A program made the translations under genes and the position numbers. The notes below the pieces were generated by a model, which did not search any database, was not told the DNA's origin, and was given only the letters and a program-made list of their open reading frames with translations. This document shows, in pieces, positions 1,758 through 11,432 of a stretch of 15,634 nucleotides of DNA; position 1 is the stretch's first letter; each line of letters starts with the position of its first letter. The DNA is taken from IMG/VR virus record IMGVR_UViG_2713896900_000009; one strand, written 5' to 3'. The DNA is from a virus. Taxonomy: Duplodnaviria; Heunggongvirae; Uroviricota; Caudoviricetes.

Positions 1758-2810
1758 TTATTTCCCCACCAGTTCACTTACCTCTTTCACCGTCTGGTTA
1801 AACCGATCTGACTCAAGCTCAACACCTAACGCCCGACGCCCCAGCGCCATTGCTGCTTTTATTGTGGAACCGGATCCCATAAAGAAATCAGCAACCAGAT
1901 CGCCTGGTCGACTACTGGCATTAATTATTTGCCGGAGCATATCCGCCGGTTTCTCACACGGATGTTTACCCGGGTAGAATTGAACGGGTTTATGCGTCCA
2001 GACATCGGTATAAGGCACGGAGACTGATACGGAGAAATAGCGCCGGAGAGATTTAAATTCATCCAGCAATTCAGAATATTTGCGGCTCAGCGACTCATAA
2101 GTCGCCACCAGCTGGTGGTGTGAATGTTCCAGTTGATTGCGCTGAAACTTCTCTGCCGCAACGCTGGCAAACAACGCCTGCAACTTCTGGTAGTCCGCCT
2201 CGTTCGGTAATTGCCACTGACAGGCACCGAACCAGTGGGACACCATGTTTCTCTTTCCAGTAGCTTCGGCTATCTGCTTTGTCGTTATGCCCAGATCAGC
2301 ACGTGCATTCCGGAAATACGAAATCAGCGGCGCCATGACGTGCTGTTTAAGCTCTCGTTCTTTCGCCGCATAGCCGTCATCTTTAGGCCGGTATGGCCCC
2401 TGATAATGTTCCGCGAACAATATGCGTTCTGTGGCAGGAAAATACGCCCGCAGGCTTTCTTTATTACACCCGTTCCATCGTCCGGATGGTTTCGCCCAGA
2501 TGATATGATTAAGCACGTTGAAACGTTCACGCATCATGATTTCAATATCAGATGCCAGGCGATGTCCGCAGAACAGGTAAAGGCTTCCAGCTGGTTTCAG
2601 TACCCGCCAGAATTGCGCCAGACACTGGTCCAGCCATTTCAGGTAGTCTGCGTCCCCTTTCCACTGATTGTCCCAGCCGTTTGGCTTCACTTTGAAATAC
2701 GGCGGATCGGTAACAATAAGGTCAACGGAGTCATCAGGCAGGGACTGGATAAAATGCAGGCAATCAGCGTTGATTAACTCAACACTGTTTATTTTTACAG
2801 TATTTTTCAT
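1758..2810 (-). CDS. DNA methyltransferase, beta-class N6-adenine/N4-cytosine type (apparent orphan, no adjacent restriction gene seen)
   Basis: 350-aa translation has the catalytic motif IV DPPY near the N-terminus (LIVTDPPYF) and the SAM-binding motif I FxGxGS near the C-terminus (DFFMGSGST), the circular-permuted beta-class order. It is the first large gene of the late-strand block upstream of the holin. Confidence 0.8.
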   Translation of the reverse strand: MKNTVKINSVELINADCLHFIQSLPDDSVDLIVTDPPYFKVKPNGWDNQWKGDADYLKWLDQCLAQFWRVLKPAGSLYLFCGHRLASDIEIMMRERFNVLNHIIWAKPSGRWNGCNKESLRAYFPATERILFAEHYQGPYRPKDDGYAAKERELKQHVMAPLISYFRNARADLGITTKQIAEATGKRNMVSHWFGACQWQLPNEADYQKLQALFASVAAEKFQRNQLEHSHHQLVATYESLSRKYSELLDEFKSLRRYFSVSVSVPYTDVWTHKPVQFYPGKHPCEKPADMLRQIINASSRPGDLVADFFMGSGSTIKAAMALGRRALGVELESDRFNQTVKEVSELVGK

Positions 2811-3423: not shown

Positions 3424-4308
3424 ATGAAATGCATCCGAAAACATCCAGCAATAGCTTATACAGTAATTATTTTAGTTTTTGCCTTAATATACAATTTCAC
3501 TTGGAGCGTCAATCCAGATTCTTTCATTAAAAACAACGTTCTCAACTCTACACCTGTATATGATGCCGTTAATTTAGCATATGCGAACAATGAGGTAAAA
3601 AAAGAAGATCCTGTCAGTGTTTCGAGGGAAGTATTTGCAGAGCAAATTTTAACACTTACAAATCAATTCAATAAGATAATAATTGAAAACTTAGAACTTG
3701 AAAAAACATTATCTCAACAGCAAGAAAAATTAAAACAAATTAGTGAAAGACAATCAATAAAGTGGGGCGAAAACACCAAAAAATACATAGCAGACAGTTT
3801 GAAAGATTTACACAAAACGCTTATCACTAAAAATAGTGAACGTACTGCCATAACATCTTTAAAAAACAAAACAAATGAAAGTCAGATTAACATTATGCTG
3901 GCCGACAAAGATGAAGAAATAGCCAAAATAAACCTTGAAATAGCGTATAAAGAAAATGATGCTAATGTCTATATCTTATCTCATGTCGGCGACTTTAACG
4001 ATCCAATAATCGTTAATGAGCTTGACGCAATCAATAAAGAAATTGAGAAAACAAGAACAAAAATAATAAACAATAAAAAGAAAATAATGGAGATAAGGAA
4101 TAAATCTCAATCTATGCTGGAGAAACTCAAAAAAGATGACCTTAACTTTTGGGATTTCTTATTTTATAGCATAGGAATATCTACAACGACCACCTTTGGT
4201 GATTTGTTAGCAAATTCAAGACTTATCAGACTGATAGTTTGCGTGCAACTTTTACTATCAATTATAGTTTTAGCTAACGTAACTCAAAGGTTTTTATCAA
4301 AAAAATAA
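3424..4308 (+). CDS. AT-rich cargo (moron) gene encoding a membrane protein: N-terminal transmembrane segment, long Lys/Glu/Asn-rich predicted coiled-coil, C-terminal pore-loop-like two-helix module. Function unknown
   Basis: 294-aa ORF on the strand opposite to every neighbouring phage gene. Composition is visibly far more AT-rich than the flanks, with AAA/AAT/ATA codons dominating. N-terminal hydrophobic stretch AIAYTVIILVFALIY. C-terminus FWDFLFYSIGISTTTTFGDLLANSRLIRLIVCVQLLLSIIVLA resembles the pore-helix, filter and inner-helix of a K+ channel (for example the KcsA region LWWSVETATTVGYGDLYPVT) but with a non-canonical filter. Hairpin terminators flank it on both sides. There is no strong Shine-Dalgarno upstream. 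Confidence 0.6.
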   Translation: MKCIRKHPAIAYTVIILVFALIYNFTWSVNPDSFIKNNVLNSTPVYDAVNLAYANNEVKKEDPVSVSREVFAEQILTLTNQFNKIIIENLELEKTLSQQQEKLKQISERQSIKWGENTKKYIADSLKDLHKTLITKNSERTAITSLKNKTNESQINIMLADKDEEIAKINLEIAYKENDANVYILSHVGDFNDPIIVNELDAINKEIEKTRTKIINNKKKIMEIRNKSQSMLEKLKKDDLNFWDFLFYSIGISTTTTFGDLLANSRLIRLIVCVQLLLSIIVLANVTQRFLSKK

Positions 4309-4707: not shown

Positions 4708-5703
4708 TCAGGCCAGCACACCAATTGCCAGCGCGCGATCGATAAATCGAAAAATCAGCTCCAGTTGGGAACCATACTTCTCTTCAAACGCCACGGTGTC
4801 CGCATGCAGCTCGTCGTGATGCTTTCTGCACAATGGCAACACAAAGAGGTCATGCGCTTTTGTACCCATTCCACCCTGACCGTGACCTATCAGGTGATGG
4901 GGATCATCAGCAGGCTTTCCACAACATGCACACGGCTGCCTCTTAACCCAGCGCGTGTACTTTTCATTAACCCAGCGGCGGCGTTTTGGGCGTAACATAA
5001 AAGACTCCGGCGACTCCGGATCCACTTTCAGCGCCAGCACCTTTTTCGCTTTATCCTGGATGATGCTGGTGGCAGGAACCGAAGGCACAAGGTCACTTTC
5101 CCGGGTGACAGACGGCACAACAGGTTTCGGTAATCTCAGCGCCTTACGGGCTGCGCTTTCAGGTAAGGCATCCGCCAGGTCATTACGAATCAGCCACCAG
5201 CACAGTTCCGGCATTGTCACGGCATGGTTATCATCAAAACCGAGATCCCGACGGACTACAGACAACACCCAGCGGGCACAGTTATCCGTTGCCATTGATT
5301 CCAGCCGTTCCGTGAACTGATCGCGCAGCTGGTTATCGCAGTGCCAGCACAGACGGATTGCTCCCGGAGCGTGTCGCATTGTGGTCATGTTCTCGCTGTG
5401 CCAGTCGGAATGAGGCCACTGGCAGCCTTTTTCACGAAGTAACCAGCTTTCAAGACATTCCACGCCACCAGCACGACGGATCACAGCCTCATTGCGGAAC
5501 ACGGCCCGAACGGCTGGATCATCCGCCAGCGGTTGTGATGCCGCCGGAACGGCACCACTGGCGAAAGATGAATAACGTTCCGGCTCAGGCTCCAGCAGGA
5601 CACGCCCCTGCATAAACAGGGGCATCAGCTCTGAACCTGGTCTGAACAATACGATCCCCATACGCGGGGCAATTTCAGGGGTCAGTAGTGCTCTCACGGT
5701 CAC
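4708..5703 (-). CDS. DUF968-family prophage protein (YdfU-like) with a C-terminal Cys/His HNH-like motif
   Basis: 331-aa ORF packed 2 nt from Q and 2 nt from the upstream gene. The C-terminus CACCGKPADDPHHLIGHGQGGMGTKAHDLFVLPLCRKHHDELH is a Cys/His cluster typical of DUF968/HNH-like proteins of lambdoid nin regions. Assignment is from recollection. Confidence 0.55.
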   Translation of the reverse strand: MTVRALLTPEIAPRMGIVLFRPGSELMPLFMQGRVLLEPEPERYSSFASGAVPAASQPLADDPAVRAVFRNEAVIRRAGGVECLESWLLREKGCQWPHSDWHSENMTTMRHAPGAIRLCWHCDNQLRDQFTERLESMATDNCARWVLSVVRRDLGFDDNHAVTMPELCWWLIRNDLADALPESAARKALRLPKPVVPSVTRESDLVPSVPATSIIQDKAKKVLALKVDPESPESFMLRPKRRRWVNEKYTRWVKRQPCACCGKPADDPHHLIGHGQGGMGTKAHDLFVLPLCRKHHDELHADTVAFEEKYGSQLELIFRFIDRALAIGVLA

Positions 5704-6533: not shown

Positions 6534-6923
6534 TCAGGCGGCTGCACCCGCCGTTTTCTCGTACTTACTGATAGTGATCTCGACCTTCCCTCCCGGGATA
6601 ACCGGTCCCCACTCAACCAGCATTCTTTTCACCTGACTGTCGTCTTCCCACACACCCGCATGGGTCGGGGCGTCAAACAGCGCCTTGTTATAGTTGTCCA
6701 GATCGCGGATCCGGTTATCCGGAGGAAACAACACGATCTCCACTGAAGCAGGTGCCGACGTTGGTTTCGGCAGGCGACGTAACTGCTCAACTATTGCTGC
6801 GCACGCCGCGCTCTGGAATTTGCGCCCCGCTGCGCTTATCAGACTCTTACCAGCAAACGCCCCTTTGTTGGGGTGTCGCCAGTACGTGTTCACGCTGGGC
6901 GGGAAAGGCAAGATCAGCTTCAT
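6534..6923 (-). CDS. rusA: Holliday-junction resolvase RusA
   Basis: 129-aa translation carries the RusA signature as I recall it from E. coli RusA (PPSVNTYWRH; RDLDNYNKALFDAPTHAGVWEDDSQV; VEITI). Typical nin-region position. Confidence 0.75.
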   Translation of the reverse strand: MKLILPFPPSVNTYWRHPNKGAFAGKSLISAAGRKFQSAACAAIVEQLRRLPKPTSAPASVEIVLFPPDNRIRDLDNYNKALFDAPTHAGVWEDDSQVKRMLVEWGPVIPGGKVEITISKYEKTAGAAA

Positions 6924-7246
6924 ACTTTCAGGCCCCTCTCATGTAACCAGTGGGCTGCACGCAGCCTGGCGTTTTCCTCACCGGCAAGCAGTGCGCGGAT
7001 AATCCCGACCGCCTCGCTGTCGTCGTCCTTCACCGCGGTATGAAGCGTTATCCCCCGGGCCACGCCACGCTTTATCGTGATGACGCCTTTTTTCTCCAGT
7101 GCACGAAGATGCTCTACCGCTGCATTCACTGAACGGTATCCCAGCATGGTTGCCACCTCCTGATTGGTTGGCGGAAAGCCACGCTCTTTCTGGTAAGAAA
7201 TCAGCATATCCAGCACCTGCTGCTGGCATTGAGTTAACGTCGTCAT
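6920..7246 (-). CDS. LexA N-terminal DNA-binding-domain-like protein lacking the S24 autoprotease domain
   Basis: 108 aa. The N-terminus aligns by eye with the LexA DNA-binding domain (LT..QQ.V.D.I.....G.PPT..E.A..LG.RS.NAA.EHL.AL..KGVI.I..G..RGI.L). No Ala-Gly cleavage site or Ser/Lys peptidase domain follows. Start overlaps the stop of the upstream methyltransferase gene by 4 nt. Confidence 0.5.
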   Translation of the reverse strand: MTTLTQCQQQVLDMLISYQKERGFPPTNQEVATMLGYRSVNAAVEHLRALEKKGVITIKRGVARGITLHTAVKDDDSEAVGIIRALLAGEENARLRAAHWLHERGLKV

Positions 7247-9337: not shown

Positions 9338-9676
9338 CTATTTCCCTGAATTTACGACGAAACTGTTCGAGCGGACTGAAGCATTCATGCTCATAGCCTT
9401 CGCGGAGGTAGATAACCCGTTGTGTTTCCGGTTCCCAACGAATGACTCTGACGGGCACTCCGTAGTGATCTTTGAACCAGCGGTTAACTTGTCGCAAAGG
9501 ACTGTCTCCTTCTGCCGGTTGAAATCACCCACAGCCCACTCTGCAAAGCTGTGGGTTACAATTTCCCTGTCACCTGGTACATTCACTGCATAGCAATATT
9601 CCACCTTCGCTTTTCCACCCGGAACAGGAAGCGCAATCAGTTGCGAGCGACGGTAGTGTGTTGTTAAACTGTTCAT
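9338..9676 (-). CDS. Hypothetical protein (112 aa) between the CII-like and replication genes
   Basis: Its ATG overlaps the upstream gene's TGA (ATGA coupling at 9673-9676) and it is on the same strand as the flanking genes. Preferred over the antisense ORF 9321..9593 for these reasons. No family recognised. Confidence 0.45.
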
Positions 9677-10242
9677 GCGTTAGTTTCTCCACAACCAGAA
9701 GCAATCGACGCCACGACGCCCGGAGCTGCACACTCGCGGGCGTCATTACTTTCTGAAATGCAAAAAATTTTGTAGACAAGTGCTGCATGCTCCTGCAGCT
9801 TCGAAATTGAGAGATACAGCTCGTCGTTAATTGCTGTCTTCTCATGCGGTTCCACTACACCGTCTTCGATTGCTGAACGAATCTGTTTTGAATAACTGCC
9901 GATCTGTTCAATGACTTCCAGCAGACGCTGGTTAATATCGGCGTTGTCCACATCCTCGACGTCAGGAAGAGACACAAAGACGCCATTTGCAGACTGCGCC
10001 ACAGCATCAGCAATGAAGTGAGTGCCACCAGCACGCTGTAAAACCATTGCCCATCCCAGCGGGAAAATCTGATCGCCATCTGCACGAAGGCGGTTGAATA
10101 AAGCGTTTTCTGTTACATCGAGCCAGTCAGCCGCTTCAGCGTAACCACCCGGCAACGCCGCGATAGTTTTTCTGACAGCTTTCACGTACCACTCAGGCTG
10201 TTTTTCTATTTTCCAGTGATGCTTACCCACGATTAGCCTCAT
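9673..10242 (-). CDS. CII-like / YdaT-like early regulatory protein (putative)
   Basis: 189-aa ORF immediately downstream of the Cro/YdaS-like gene in the position occupied by cII or ydaT in lambdoid and Rac-type immunity regions. Call is based mainly on position and size; sequence recognition is weak. Confidence 0.4.
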
Positions 10243-10273: not shown

Positions 10274-10474
10274 CTAATCTTTCGGATAGATATCCGGTCT
10301 TAAGTCAGATTTCGTAATTGCACCTGACGTGCATTGCTCAAGTTTTTTAGCCAGCACAAAACTGGCTTTTTTATAGCCATTGAAAACCAGCCGTAAGTAG
10401 CCAGGTGTTGAGCCAACTTTTCCGGCCAACTCGCCCTGCTGTTCTTTGGTTAAAGAGTCCCAATACGCTTTCAT
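10274..10474 (-). CDS. cro: Cro-like repressor, YdaS-type helix-turn-helix (start at internal Met; track ORF extends to 10729)
   Basis: 66-aa translation MKAYWDSLTKEQQGELAGKVGSTPGYLRLVFNG...AKKLEQCTSGAITKSDLRPDIYPKD is helix-turn-helix-like with a C-terminal LRPD motif as in YdaS/Cro-like proteins. GGAGGT lies 9 nt upstream of the ATG at 10472-10474. It is divergent from the CI repressor gene across an operator-bearing 90-bp region. Confidence 0.65.
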   Translation of the reverse strand: MKAYWDSLTKEQQGELAGKVGSTPGYLRLVFNGYKKASFVLAKKLEQCTSGAITKSDLRPDIYPKD

Positions 10475-10480
10475 ACAATA

Positions 10481-10497
10481 TGTACCTCCGGTGTACA
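10481..10497. promoter_or_regulatory. Operator-like inverted repeat TGTAC-N7-GTACA (site 1) in the cI/cro intergenic region
   Basis: Seen directly: tgtacctccggtgtaca, flanked by further symmetry (atatgtac...gtacatat). It sits next to the cro start, with the cro ribosome-binding site in its spacer. Confidence 0.45.
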
Positions 10498-10530
10498 TAT
10501 TACATGATTGAAATGAACCTTCAAGATACT

Positions 10531-10547
10531 TGTACCTTAACGGTACA
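10531..10547. promoter_or_regulatory. Operator-like inverted repeat TGTAC-N7-GTACA (site 2) in the cI/cro intergenic region, overlapping a possible promoter for leaderless cI
   Basis: Seen directly: cttgtaccttaacggtacaag, with perfect 8-bp arms. It lies just upstream of a possible -10 (TTTAAT at 10553-10558) placed about 7 nt before the cI ATG at 10565, which has no Shine-Dalgarno. Confidence 0.45.
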
Positions 10548-10564
10548 AGGGTTTTAATTTCGTT

Positions 10565-11239
10565 ATGAAAACAATCCATGACATCCGGCGGTCTAACGCC
10601 AGAAAACTGAGAGATGGTGTTGGCGGGAATTCTTCCTTTGCCACTATGATTGATCGCGAGCCAACCCAGACCAGCAGGTTTATGGGAGATGGTGCTACTA
10701 AAAATATCGGTGACAGCATGGCACGACACATCGAAAAATGTTTCGACCTACCTGTCGGATGGCTCGATCAAGAACACCAGACAACGAACATCACAAAAAA
10801 ACCTGATGTTTCAATCACTAATAAACAAATCACATTAGTCCCTGTCATATCATGGGTACAGGCCGGAGCATGGAAAGAAGTTGGATATTCTGAGGTTGAT
10901 TTGAGCACAGCAGAAACGTATCCCTGCCCTGTACCCTGTGGGGAAATGACTTATATCTTGCGGGTGATAGGTGATTCAATGATTGATGAGTACCGCCCGG
11001 GAGACATGATTTTTGTCGATCCTGAAGTACCTGCCTGCCACGGTGACGACGTTATTGCATTGATGCACGATACAGGTGAAACCACCTTCAAAAGGTTAAT
11101 AGAAGATGGGACACAGCGTTATCTCAAAGCGTTAAACCCAAACTGGCCTGAGCCTTACATTAAGATCAACGGTAATTGCTCTATAATTGGTACAGTGATT
11201 TTCTCAGGAAAACCAAGAAGATACAAAATCAAAGCCTAA
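10565..11239 (+). CDS. cI: CI-type prophage repressor with C-terminal S24 (LexA-like) autopeptidase domain
   Basis: 224 aa. N-terminal helix-turn-helix-like region. Probable Ala-Gly autocleavage site (VQAGAW), catalytic Ser in the GDSM motif (RVIGDSMIDEYRPGDMIFVDPE) and downstream Lys (TTFKRL). Divergent from cro. Confidence 0.85.
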   Translation: MKTIHDIRRSNARKLRDGVGGNSSFATMIDREPTQTSRFMGDGATKNIGDSMARHIEKCFDLPVGWLDQEHQTTNITKKPDVSITNKQITLVPVISWVQAGAWKEVGYSEVDLSTAETYPCPVPCGEMTYILRVIGDSMIDEYRPGDMIFVDPEVPACHGDDVIALMHDTGETTFKRLIEDGTQRYLKALNPNWPEPYIKINGNCSIIGTVIFSGKPRRYKIKA

Positions 11240-11250
11240 TCAATGTTTAT

Positions 11251-11275
11251 GAACCTGCTTCGGCAGGTTTTTTTA
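11251..11275 (+). terminator. Intrinsic terminator immediately after cI
   Basis: Hairpin gaaCCTGC-ttcg-GCAGGtt followed by a run of seven T (11268-11274), 12 nt after the cI stop. Confidence 0.7.
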
Positions 11276-11278
11276 TAC

Positions 11279-11306
11279 TTGACAATGTACCTTTGAGATA
11301 CATAAT
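11279..11306 (+). promoter_or_regulatory. Strong sigma70-like promoter (TTGACA, 16 nt, CATAAT) with an embedded operator-like TGTAC-N7-aTACA site; candidate PL/OL for the early-left operon
   Basis: Seen directly: -35 TTGACA at 11279-11284 and -10 CATAAT at 11301-11306. The spacer contains ATGTACctttgagATACAT (11285-11303), which matches the operator motif of the cI/cro region, and a second ATGTACC follows at 11304-11310. Confidence 0.5.
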
Positions 11307-11432
11307 GTACCCAAGAGAAACAACGAACAGGCAGGACGCCCACGAAGTAGCCGCCTGGGGCATATGAAGTCCAGGATGATTCGTTGAGTCATGTTGTGCC
11401 ACTAGGCACTCATGTTAAAGCAGGTGTATGAA

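Follow-up and report, generated by a model that had tools for sequence, protein, structure and literature searches.

Organisation of the immunity region

We analysed a 15,634-nt stretch of viral DNA (hereafter the window), in which the divergent genes cro and cI flank a 90-bp intergenic region (10475-10564), exactly where a first-pass annotation of the sequence had placed it. The cro gene (10274-10474, minus strand) is an open reading frame of 66 aa, homologous to ymfT/croE, and is the first gene of the PR operon. It has weak Pfam matches to YdaS/HTH_3, is annotated as ymfT by RefSeq in near-identical genomes, and shares 98.5% identity with the e14-type Cro protein of two of the compared loci (L009 and L010). 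On the other side, cI (10565-11239, plus strand) encodes a 224-aa homologue of YmfK/CohE, made up of a predicted N-terminal DNA-binding domain and an S24 peptidase domain. The gene is followed by an intrinsic terminator of the cI transcript (11251-11277, plus strand), with a stem-loop and T-run at 11251-11270, which is also annotated in the SfV and Ayreon records.

Three promoters can be placed around these genes. Just past the terminator lies PL (11279-11306, plus strand), the near-consensus TTGACA-16-CATAAT element of the first-pass annotation, which matches the consensus at 11 of 12 positions, has a predicted start near A11313, and carries a promoter annotation in phage Ayreon. The maintenance promoter PRM (10530-10565, plus strand) has a -35 hexamer TTGTAC (10530-10535), a 17-nt spacer, a -10 hexamer TTTAAT (10553-10558) and its start at A10565, which is the A of the cI ATG. 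In the opposite direction, the predicted PR (10497-10524, minus strand) combines a -35 hexamer TTGAAG (10524-10519), a 16-nt spacer and a -10 hexamer TAATAT (10502-10497). Its consensus score (8/12) is under the threshold of a generic promoter scan; nevertheless, most of 31 diverged sequences carry related hexamers at the same place (TTGATG, TTGCGG, TTGACG or TTGCGT at -35; TAATAT, CATAAT or TATAAT at -10), and we regard PR as the best positional candidate. The exact starts of PR, expected at about 10489-10492 on the minus strand, and of PL remain predictions, and the supplement of a K-12 dRNA-seq study lists no start sites near either predicted promoter (PMC4681348).

The cI transcript had been proposed to be leaderless, as its ATG appeared to lack a Shine-Dalgarno sequence and to lie about 7 nt past a -10 element. 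Both observations hold: no Shine-Dalgarno sequence precedes the cI ATG in the window, and 6 nt separate TTTAAT from its A. The -10 hexamer, a gap of 6-7 nt and the ATG are conserved in relatives, and an SD-like sequence is absent in 29 of 31 of them. Direct evidence comes from K-12, where dRNA-seq gives ymfK a leader length of 0 on an e14 sequence identical to that of the window (PMC4681348 Table S3).

A conserved RNA hairpin lies in the PL leader (11352-11378, plus strand), outside the operator system described below. Its paired cells reach 100% in one alignment (A4) and 98% in another (A5), with compensatory double changes in 14 and 30 cells, respectively, a level reached by 0 of 500 shuffles, and an invariant G-U pair favours the plus strand. 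A search of the whole window against Rfam gave no family at the gathering threshold and left the hairpin unmatched; between 10400 and 11500 there were sub-threshold matches only (E 0.7-4.9), well below gathering scores. We also considered a put-like element of the HK022 type and rejected it, as the covariance model found neither a second copy downstream of PR nor a match in HK022 nt 26000-37000.

Five candidate operators at the two early promoters

The first-pass annotation had noticed three copies of a TGTAC-N7-GTACA-type repeat, and all three are found at the positions it gave: TGTACCTCCGGTGTACA at 10481-10497, TGTACCTTAACGGTACA at 10531-10547 and TGTACCTTTGAGATACA at 11286-11302. Comparison of 75 distinct switch regions refines the motif to the 17-bp consensus TGTACC-N5-GGTACA. 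Allowing at most one mismatch on both strands, the whole window contains exactly three sites, all within the two regulatory gaps, against a chance expectation of 0.29, and only 2 of 200 dinucleotide-preserving shuffles reach three; at up to two mismatches, the count in the window is not above chance. The whole K-12 e14 element has the same three sites and no others, and another prophage searched together with its chromosomal flanks again has three only. Two weaker copies had been missed, TGAACCTTCAAGATACT at 10514-10530 and TGTACCCAAGAGAAACA at 11306-11322. The three reported copies stand, and the switch probably has five operator sites in all.

Each site lies on promoter elements. OR1 (10481-10497), an exact match to the motif, covers the end of the PR -10 hexamer together with the predicted start of PR and the Shine-Dalgarno sequence of cro (GGAGG, 10489-10485). 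The weak OR2 (10514-10530) has its centre, which contains the PR -35 hexamer, 43 bp before the PRM start and directly adjoins OR3 (10531-10547), a perfect palindrome overlapping the PRM -35 hexamer and spacer. On the other side of cI, OL1 (11286-11302) sits within the PL spacer and the weak OL2 (11306-11322), with two mismatches in the window, lies across the predicted PL start, at 20 bp from OL1 centre to centre.

Conservation of the sites among relatives

A search for the motif in related prophages had been suggested as a check, and it showed the same sites kept at the same positions. We compared 31 unique switch sequences, a set later enlarged to 75 unique regions ranging from Escherichia to Pseudomonas, Salinicola and Vibrio, and gathered homologues of the repressor N-domain from about 20 genera (52-100% identity). 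The half-sites are invariant in all loci of these homologues, where the central 5 bp drift freely and the distances of the sites from the cI ATG are fixed at -84, -51 and -34. OR1 has 0-1 mismatch and keeps a spacing of exactly 50 bp to OR3 in all 49 independent unique intergenic regions, which come from the motif-selected viral contigs described below. OR2 is kept in 75/75 unique regions as TGaACC-t.CAA-G(R)tACT, always with 2-4 mismatches and perfect in none. Within the first set, OR3, whose central N5 is free, keeps a distance of -34/-35 to the cI ATG in 25 of 31 sequences; four have it at -37/-38, and none of the rest has it farther away.

The PL side is conserved as well. The arrangement TTGACA-a-OL1-TAAT is present in 72 of 75 viral loci and in about 25 genome loci. 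In many relatives the palindrome of OL1 is perfect, as in Edwardsiella phage EPP-1, where it reads TGTACCCATGCGGTACA. The OL2 position follows the pattern TGTAcC....ag.aaca; in EPP-1, Edwardsiella anguillarum and Trabulsiella the site there has a single mismatch. In an independent test in the reverse direction, 81 of 120 viral contigs chosen by the DNA motif only carry this repressor domain immediately downstream. Invariant half-sites at fixed places and a repressor domain adjoining the motif agree with the original proposal that the copies are OR and OL sites, and the TGTAC...GTACA repeats are most likely docking sites of the prophage repressor.

The repressor and its specificity

The Ala-Gly site and Ser/Lys dyad claimed for the repressor are indeed present. 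Pfam Peptidase_S24 covers residues 93-212 of cI (E=1.5e-26), the catalytic residues Ser138 (GDSM) and Lys176 (TFKRL) align to the lambda cI motifs, and the cleavage site Ala100-Gly101 in WVQAGAW aligns to lambda HVQAGMF. An AG dipeptide at residue 100 is found in most enteric cI homologues. With the S24 dyad and the Ala-Gly linker site, cI has two features of the LexA/S24 SOS-cleavable repressors.

In Pfam, the N-terminal domain has no match at E values up to 10. By profile search it matches the N-terminal domain of SPC32H Rep (5d50, E=4.8e-7, residues 1-72 versus 2-73) and, more weakly, those of the phage CI proteins 7nkv and 8c3l. With pLDDT 62 and pTM 0.27, a single-sequence AlphaFold model gave no usable fold. 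The putative helix-turn-helix nature of this domain is therefore read from the 5d50 profile match and from the sequence pattern.

Wherever the motif is kept, in enteric, Pseudomonas and Salinicola loci, the recognition helix DREPTQxSR of cI is invariant, while in H-19B (41% identity) and mEp043 (39% identity) both the helix and the operators differ. These comparisons support the view that operator specificity tracks the repressor. Our literature searches on this type of YmfK/CI yielded neither binding nor footprinting or ChIP data; that CI itself contacts the sites, that it may do so cooperatively and that it may activate PRM from OR2 are inferred, as is a probable contact of Cro with the same sites. 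In affinity, OR1 would stand about level with OR3, both far above OR2, and OL1 above OL2.

Alternative explanations

One possibility, which we think somewhat doubtful, is that Cro (YmfT) is the main or even the sole reader of the motifs, or that the sites are partitioned, with Cro for example preferring the perfect OR3, as lambda Cro does, and CI using OR1, OR2 and the OL sites. In lambdoid phages CI and Cro normally share operators, a Cro homologue accompanies cI and the motif in every locus, and a perfect palindrome over PRM is what would be expected of a site bound by Cro first. Because Cro is co-inherited with cI in all loci, comparison alone cannot assign a reader to each site. Against a leading role of Cro, the CI recognition helix does not vary among the loci with this half-site in enterics, Pseudomonas and Salinicola, whereas the corresponding Cro segment differs (GYLRLVFNG versus AYLRQVLACG) and Cro identity drops to 32-35%; moreover, the OL sites lie at a promoter that needs to be shut off in the lysogen, where CI and not Cro is present. 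Reading by Cro is a complement to the CI model and no true alternative to it.

Two further readings would deny the palindromes an operator role altogether. Host LexA might control induction directly through weak LexA boxes, the palindromes being incidental. Such control was proposed for e14 by Courcelle 2001, as cited in PMC11228462, and AZT treatment of K-12 induces 17 of the 22 e14 genes in dependence on LexA cleavage, for which the authors invoke 13 weak LexA boxes (PMC11228462). However, the lexA3 allele cannot separate LexA repression from CI cleavage, because it blocks SOS generally. We rejected LexA boxes as the control of PR and PL, as CTGT-N8-ACAG with at most one mismatch has no match at either promoter (10475-10560 and 11279-11322); in addition, the TGT-N11-ACA spacing of the motif is incompatible with a LexA box, and the motif co-varies with the phage repressor and not with the host. 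Moreover, induction of the e14 genes is seen at about 50 min, while LexA genes respond at 10 min (PMC11002266), and ymfM/SfiC has been reported to be outside LexA control (bioRxiv 10.1101/2020.11.19.390815). Direct LexA control is accordingly very improbable. We give even less credence to chance matches or RNA/terminator hairpins, although a generic scan lists CTTGTACCTTAACGGTACAAG followed by GGTTTTAATT (10529-10549) as terminator-like and the count at up to two mismatches would suit a chance origin. The terminator-like call on OR3 was rejected as a by-product of the palindrome and the PRM -10 hexamer, which supplies its T-rich tail, and OR3 lies upstream of both the mapped and the predicted start, so that it is not transcribed from PRM or PR. 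The excess of sites at one mismatch, together with half-sites that stay invariant over dozens of diverged sequences around a variable loop, means that this reading is effectively refuted by the comparative data.

A predicted immunity switch of the e14/SfV type

We conclude, with a probability of roughly 0.88, that this DNA is the immunity switch of a lambdoid prophage of the e14/SfV type, in which a CI dimer most likely binds TGTACC-N5-GGTACA. In the lysogen, CI on OR1 (at the PR -10/+1 region) and on the weak OR2 (at the PR -35) would shut off PR, which is expected to drive cro, a CII-like ymfL homologue, the division inhibitor ymfM, and replication and late-control genes. CI on OR3 would limit its own leaderless transcript, and CI on OL1 and OL2 would shut off PL, and with it the early-left genes, xis and int. 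Upon DNA damage, activated RecA would promote self-cleavage of CI at Ala100-Gly101 through the Ser138/Lys176 dyad, parting the DNA-binding domain from the dimerisation domain and freeing both promoters. The suggestion that the prophage is SOS-inducible is in line with data from K-12 e14, where genes of both operons, intE and ymfJ on the PL side and ymfM on the PR side, are switched on at a late stage of the SOS response, a behaviour ascribed to a CI-like repressor (PMC11002266).

OR1 and OR3 look equally strong, unlike the lambda order OR1>OR2>OR3, and lambda-style cooperativity and positive autoregulation may thus not apply. Perfect OR1 and OR3 sites with a weak OR2 might point instead to tight negative autoregulation of the leaderless cI, or non-cooperative binding as in 933W, rather than OR1-OR2 cooperativity with positive autoregulation. 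It is tempting, if speculative, to extend this to the whole e14/SfV type, whose switch might run on a non-lambda logic given a Pfam-less DNA-binding domain kept along with a 6-5-6 palindrome from Enterobacterales to Pseudomonas, Salinicola and Vibrio, perfect OR1 and OR3 sites, and a never-perfect OR2 abutting OR3.

Distribution and significance

The 1.25-kb region is matched in 2152 of 5426 complete E. coli genomes, with at least 80% of its length in 1323, so that the module is found in about a quarter of them. Stx2c-converting, cdtI and Shigella serotype-converting phages are likewise under its control, as are, in K-12, e14 excision and the SOS-inducible division inhibitor YmfM/SfiC. The original prediction is sound but largely on record already, its main elements having been annotated or mapped before, and it opens no new question: the switch is a well-behaved member of the lambdoid paradigm. 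The consensus and the five-site map should be useful for reading e14 induction data, which are still sometimes ascribed to weak LexA boxes (PMC11228462), for predicting prophage heteroimmunity, and for designing reporter or ChIP experiments.

Comparison with known systems

The closest known systems are K-12 e14 and SfV. The cI/cro intergenic DNA of e14 (ymfK/ymfT) is identical to that of the window, and SfV is 98.1% identical over the 1251-bp region, for which the best E. coli chromosomal matches reach 99.7%. The three strong sites, the terminator, PL and the leader are the same in e14/SfV, and the window cI differs from K-12 ymfK and SfV cI at few positions; its N-terminal 92 aa are 100% identical to those of SfIV and 98.9% to those of SfV. 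Small differences exist in OR1, whose right half is ATACA in SfV and Ayreon and GTACA in the window. Otherwise only flanking modules differ: the first PL gene of the window resembles SfV orf33 and has no homology to K-12 ymfJ, and its late region carries other cargo genes than e14/SfV. The GenBank record of SfV (U82619) labels the equivalent of 10480-10548 "putative operator region", and the limits of this feature, which exceed the outer ends of OR1 and OR3 by one base, suggest that its authors saw the repeats. A possible characterised relative, Pseudomonas phage D3, is absent among the matches listed for this repressor family.

The Salmonella phage repressor SPC32H Rep (PDB 5d50) is the only solved structure matching the N-domain of the window repressor. 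Its C-terminal domain differs from that of cI, and it is inactivated by an antirepressor and is not known to be inactivated by RecA-mediated cleavage.

With lambda, the window shares the general plan of the switch: divergent PRM and PR with three operators over their hexamers, an arrangement kept across the 75 unique regions; cI followed by the leftward early promoter PL with its own copies of the motif; a leaderless PRM transcript, as mapped in K-12 and kept in its geometry across the family; an S24 domain with the Ala-Gly site and Ser/Lys dyad; and an OR2 with its centre about 43 bp before the PRM start. In contrast, the operator sequences are unrelated (TGTACC-N5-GGTACA versus TATCACCGCCAGTGGTA in lambda) and the N-terminal domains of the two repressors cannot be aligned. 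There are two OL sites in the window versus three in lambda, and only about 0.8 kb separates OL from OR, unlike in lambda. The OR2-OR3 and OR2-OR1 distances are 17 and 33 bp centre to centre, against about 24 and 23 bp in lambda, and OR3, as a perfect palindrome, is probably strong, which again differs from lambda.

Stx phage 933W has three OR and only two OL sites, and thus five natural sites, as in the window (PMC3317979). Its half-sites have the same G-(T/A)-A-C core (oR1 CGTACTGAAAGTACG and oR3 TGAACCATGAGTACG in the annotated genome), and the weak OR2 of the window uses the same GAAC variant. However, the 933W sites span 15 bp (GTAC-N5-GTAC) against 17 bp in the window (GTAC-N7-GTAC), and a comparison of the 933W repressor with the window cI gave no detectable N-domain similarity, with only the S24 domain aligning. 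The 933W repressor is reportedly cleaved at Leu-Gly, whereas the cleavage site of the window cI is the canonical Ala-Gly. The N7 spacing and the N-domains that cannot be aligned set the window apart from the 933W immunity type. The distinct immunity specificity proposed by the first-pass annotation therefore holds with respect to lambda, 434, H-19B and 933W, but not as a new type: with the same repressor and the same operator DNA, the window belongs to the e14/SfV immunity group.

A lambdoid prophage with the e14/SfV immunity module

Near-identity to Shigella phage SfV and to e14, the cryptic prophage of Escherichia coli K-12, indicates that the window is in all probability a lambdoid prophage with the e14/SfV immunity module. 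A 1.25-kb region was 98.1% identical to SfV and 95-99% identical to SfIV, cdtI, Ayreon, 2H10, PhiR29/PhiR49 and several Stx2c-converting phages, and was matched in 2152 of 5426 complete E. coli genomes, where its genes are annotated ymfK, ymfT and ymfL. In the alignment with E. coli K-12 MG1655, the cI/cro intergenic DNA was identical to that of e14, and near-identity extended over the cI gene, the terminator, PL and the initial ~60 nt of its transcript.

Leftward of cro lie homologues of YmfL and YmfM, replication genes, Dam, RusA, Q and lysis genes; rightward of PL are early-left genes, xis and int, the first PL gene in the window not being homologous to K-12 ymfJ. The YmfM and YmfL homologues (9338-9676 and 9673-10242, minus strand) belong to the PR operon. 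The latter carries a Phage_CP76 (CII-like regulator) domain, and the former is 97% identical to e14 YmfM (SfiC), an SOS-inducible cell-division inhibitor, so a host-filamentation function would also be gated by the predicted operators. An ORF of 294 aa (3424-4308, plus strand), weakly matching Ion_trans_2 (potassium-channel-like), is flanked by Q (4705-4346) on one side and by the methylase and lysis genes on the other, and is read in the direction opposite to the late genes. Stx phages carry cargo at the position between Q and the lysis genes, and in a related E. coli prophage a 3.1-kb metallophosphoesterase gene occupies the equivalent slot.

Predicted operator copies and promoters

The 90-bp gap between the leftward cro-like ORF (10474-10274) and the rightward cI-like ORF (10565-11239) contains two copies of TGTAC-N7-GTACA, TGTACCTCCGGTGTACA (OR1, 10481-10497) and TGTACCTTAACGGTACA (OR3, 10531-10547). 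A third, TGTACCTTTGAGATACA (OL1, 11286-11302), lies in the spacer of the PL promoter TTGACA-16-CATAAT (11279-11306; 11/12 consensus positions), directly after a stem-loop/T-run terminator (11251-11270). This is the arrangement that the first-pass annotation had described. With up to one mismatch allowed, the 15.6-kb window contains three copies of the motif and no more (0.29 expected; three or more in 2 of 200 shuffles), and the search beyond it, which that annotation had proposed, likewise gave only three copies in the entire K-12 e14 element and in another prophage searched together with the flanking chromosome. A weak copy, TGAACCTTCAAGATACT (OR2, 10514-10530), directly adjoins OR3, the site at -34.

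PRM comprises a -35 element TTGTAC (10530-10535), 17 nt, a -10 element TTTAAT (10553-10558) and 6 nt before the A of the cI ATG, a layout without a Shine-Dalgarno sequence that is kept in almost all relatives. The suggestion that cI is leaderless was borne out by K-12 dRNA-seq, where ymfK is one of just five E. coli mRNAs without a leader, transcription beginning with the start codon's first base (leader 0), and where the authors remarked on the parallel with lambda cI (PMC4681348). In Edwardsiella phage EPP-1 the deposited repressor gene start (1435) falls inside the operator region, and the true start is likely the conserved leaderless ATG at 1501.

The best placement of PR (minus strand) has a -35 element TTGAAG (10524-10519) in the centre of OR2, 16 nt, and a -10 element TAATAT (10502-10497) whose last base is the first of OR1. 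Most of the diverged sequences show this geometry again, their -10 variants reaching TATAAT. The cro Shine-Dalgarno sequence also falls within OR1 and would account for the invariant CTCC in the centre of that site. From these elements we infer the PR placement and a PL start at ~11313; the supplement of the K-12 dRNA-seq study lists no start sites at predicted PR or PL, as expected of repressed promoters.

Phylogenetic footprint of the predicted operators

Diverged relatives were taken as a phylogenetic footprint, using the N-terminal 92 residues of the repressor as tblastn query. Homologues were found in EPP-1 (61% identity), Pseudomonas aeruginosa phages (55-59%) and H-19B (41%), and searching genomes, one for each species, gave 29 further loci, covering Atlantibacter, Leclercia, Pantoea, Enterobacter, Klebsiella, Kluyvera, Serratia, Rahnella, Proteus, Morganella, Edwardsiella, Salinicola, Pseudomonas and Amphritea. 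In nearly all of the 31 unique intergenic sequences the copies of the motif kept an essentially constant distance to the start codon of cI, -84/-85 for one and -34/-35 for the other, and stood up to 3 nt further away in the Symbiopectobacterium and Salinicola loci. Across these sequences the half-sites were invariant and the central bases free to vary, giving a refined consensus, TGTACC-N5-GGTACA.

OR2 was present at -51/-52 in most of the 31 sequences; across 75 unique regions it reads TGaACC-t.CAA-G(R)tACT, always with 2-4 mismatches and perfect in none. Downstream of cI, the pattern 'terminator - TTGACA - a - TGTACC-N5-G(G/A)TACA - TAA - TGTAcC....ag.aaca' is kept in ~25 genome loci, which points to a second OL site, OL2, at 11306-11322; it has two mismatches in the window and one in EPP-1, Edwardsiella anguillarum and Trabulsiella. 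The three copies originally noted are thus real, but the two weaker ones, OR2 and OL2, had been missed, and the footprint gives five sites.

In a reverse test, IMG/VR was scanned with CTTGTACCNNNNNGGTACA and at least 120 contigs matched. Among the matches listed, the repressor N-domain was encoded directly downstream in 81 of 120 contigs, OR1 (0-1 mismatch) lay exactly 50 bp from OR3 in 49/49 unique intergenic sequences (frequencies for OR1 and OR2 being free of bias from locus selection), and the PL/OL1 arrangement was found in 72 of the 75 loci with enough sequence (position frequencies for OR3 and OL1 being partly so biased).

CI as the probable reader of the sites

The C-terminal residues 93-212 of the repressor form an S24 peptidase domain in which VQAG (Ala100-Gly101), GDSM (Ser138) and TFKRL (Lys176) align with the cleavage site and catalytic dyad of lambda cI, confirming that these are retained. 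For the N-terminal domain, Pfam gave no match up to E<=10; a four-sequence profile of it matched the N-domain of Salmonella phage SPC32H Rep (PDB 5d50, E=4.8e-7). Its predicted recognition segment, (I)DREPTQxSR, does not vary among the homologues that retain the motif, save that Vibrio phage Va_PF430-3 has DRSETQVSR in its place and also retains the motif. In contrast, H-19B (LGVSPSQLTQ) has different operators, and mEp043 (EREPSYVSR) has the operator TTACC-N4-GGTAA.

Cro is co-inherited in all loci and is more diverged than cI; in Pseudomonas and Salinicola it is 32-35% identical, with a different HTH segment and an unchanged half-site. Because the recognition segment tracks the motif while Cro diverges and the half-site stays constant, the comparison points to CI as the conserved reader. 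Cro and CI share operators as the norm in lambdoid phages, Cro normally binding the same sites; that it does so at these predicted sites as well is probable, but that they are read mainly or only by Cro, or are divided between Cro and CI, we consider possible, if rather doubtful. Assignment of the sites as OR and OL operators for this repressor is accordingly well supported by sequence comparison, with half-sites and spacing conserved and specificity following the recognition segment.

SOS induction

In K-12, induction of genes of both e14 operons (intE and ymfJ on the PL side, ymfM on the PR side) comes at ~50 min, against ~10 min for LexA-regulated genes, a delay that the authors ascribed to a slowly cleaved CI-like repressor (PMC11002266); it agrees with the SOS-inducible prophage proposed from the sequence. 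SfiC/ymfM has also been reported as not LexA-repressed (bioRxiv 10.1101/2020.11.19.390815). A 2024 study instead ascribes e14 induction to weak LexA boxes (PMC11228462). However, CTGT-N8-ACAG is absent at PR and PL at up to one mismatch, and the lexA3 allele in that study shuts off the SOS response as a whole, so that its result cannot separate the LexA from the CI model; we regard induction through weak LexA boxes as highly improbable.

The nin-like region, from Dam to RusA, encodes a 108-aa protein (6920-7246, minus strand; RefSeq 'LexA family transcriptional regulator') with the LexA DNA-binding domain only (Pfam PF01726, 2.9e-19; TIGR00498 residues 1-91) and without an S24 cleavage or dimerisation domain. 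Such a non-cleavable domain from an induced prophage could disturb the host SOS regulon. The sole perfect CTGT-N8-ACAG in the window is a near-consensus SOS box, TACTGTAAAAATAAACAGTG (2784-2803, minus strand), over codons 3-9 of an N6/N4 DNA methylase ORF (2810-1758, minus strand); it could be a coincidence, mark a LexA-controlled cargo gene or be a target of the phage LexA-domain protein.

A conserved hairpin in the PL leader

Directly downstream of PL is a ~60-nt non-coding leader (leader and hairpin region 11313-11385, plus strand), conserved even where the downstream genes differ and found in K-12 e14, SfV, several Enterobacterales genera and 39 of 100 IMG/VR loci. Its hairpin (11352-11378, plus strand) has a 7-bp stem with three to four covarying base pairs and a conserved 12-nt loop (GGCRUAYGAA..). 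Paired cells made up 100% in 11 sequences and 98% in 26 independent distinct sequences, with 14 and 30 double-change cells, respectively, numbers reached by 0/500 shuffles. An invariant G-U pair in the stem favours the PL-transcript strand. Possible roles are in processing, stability or antitermination. The hairpin matched no Rfam family, and no second copy was found in the window, including downstream of PR, nor a counterpart in the region of HK022 searched (nt 26000-37000).

Comparison with known systems

The finding is correct and already known. The SfV GenBank record U82619 has a 'putative operator region' feature equivalent to window 10480-10548, one base past the outer edges of OR1 and OR3; the PL promoter is annotated in the Ayreon record; a 2014 publication reported the leaderless ymfK transcript; and the SOS-sensitive CI-like repressor of e14 is standard knowledge (PMC11002266; bioRxiv 10.1101/2020.11.19.390815). 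Of the distinct immunity specificity originally proposed, it holds that the operators are unlike those of lambda, but the type is already that of e14/SfV, the K-12 e14 intergenic DNA being identical. Modest increments come from the refinement of the consensus, from a map of five sites that includes OR2 and OL2, and from the finding that module and motif are conserved across several orders of Gammaproteobacteria.

The switch shares with lambda its divergent PRM and PR, three sites at OR, PL downstream of cI, a leaderless cI transcript and a repressor with Ala-Gly and Ser/Lys. Unlike lambda, it has another operator sequence, two OL sites, centre-to-centre spacings of 33 bp (OR1-OR2) and 17 bp (OR2-OR3), and an OR3 as perfect as OR1. 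Phage 933W, whose annotated operators are CGTACTGAAAGTACG, AAAACTTTCAGTTCA and TGAACCATGAGTACG, shares the G(T/A)AC half-site core (933W 4776-4846 against window 10481-10547), in a 15-bp GTAC-N5-GTAC rather than a 17-bp GTAC-N7-GTAC format. The repressor N-terminal domains of the two are not alignable, with undetectable sequence similarity, so the resemblance would be functional or convergent and no sign of membership. With three OR and two OL sites, adjacent ones apparently bound non-cooperatively (PMC3317979), 933W is the closest of the experimentally characterised systems in how its sites are organised.
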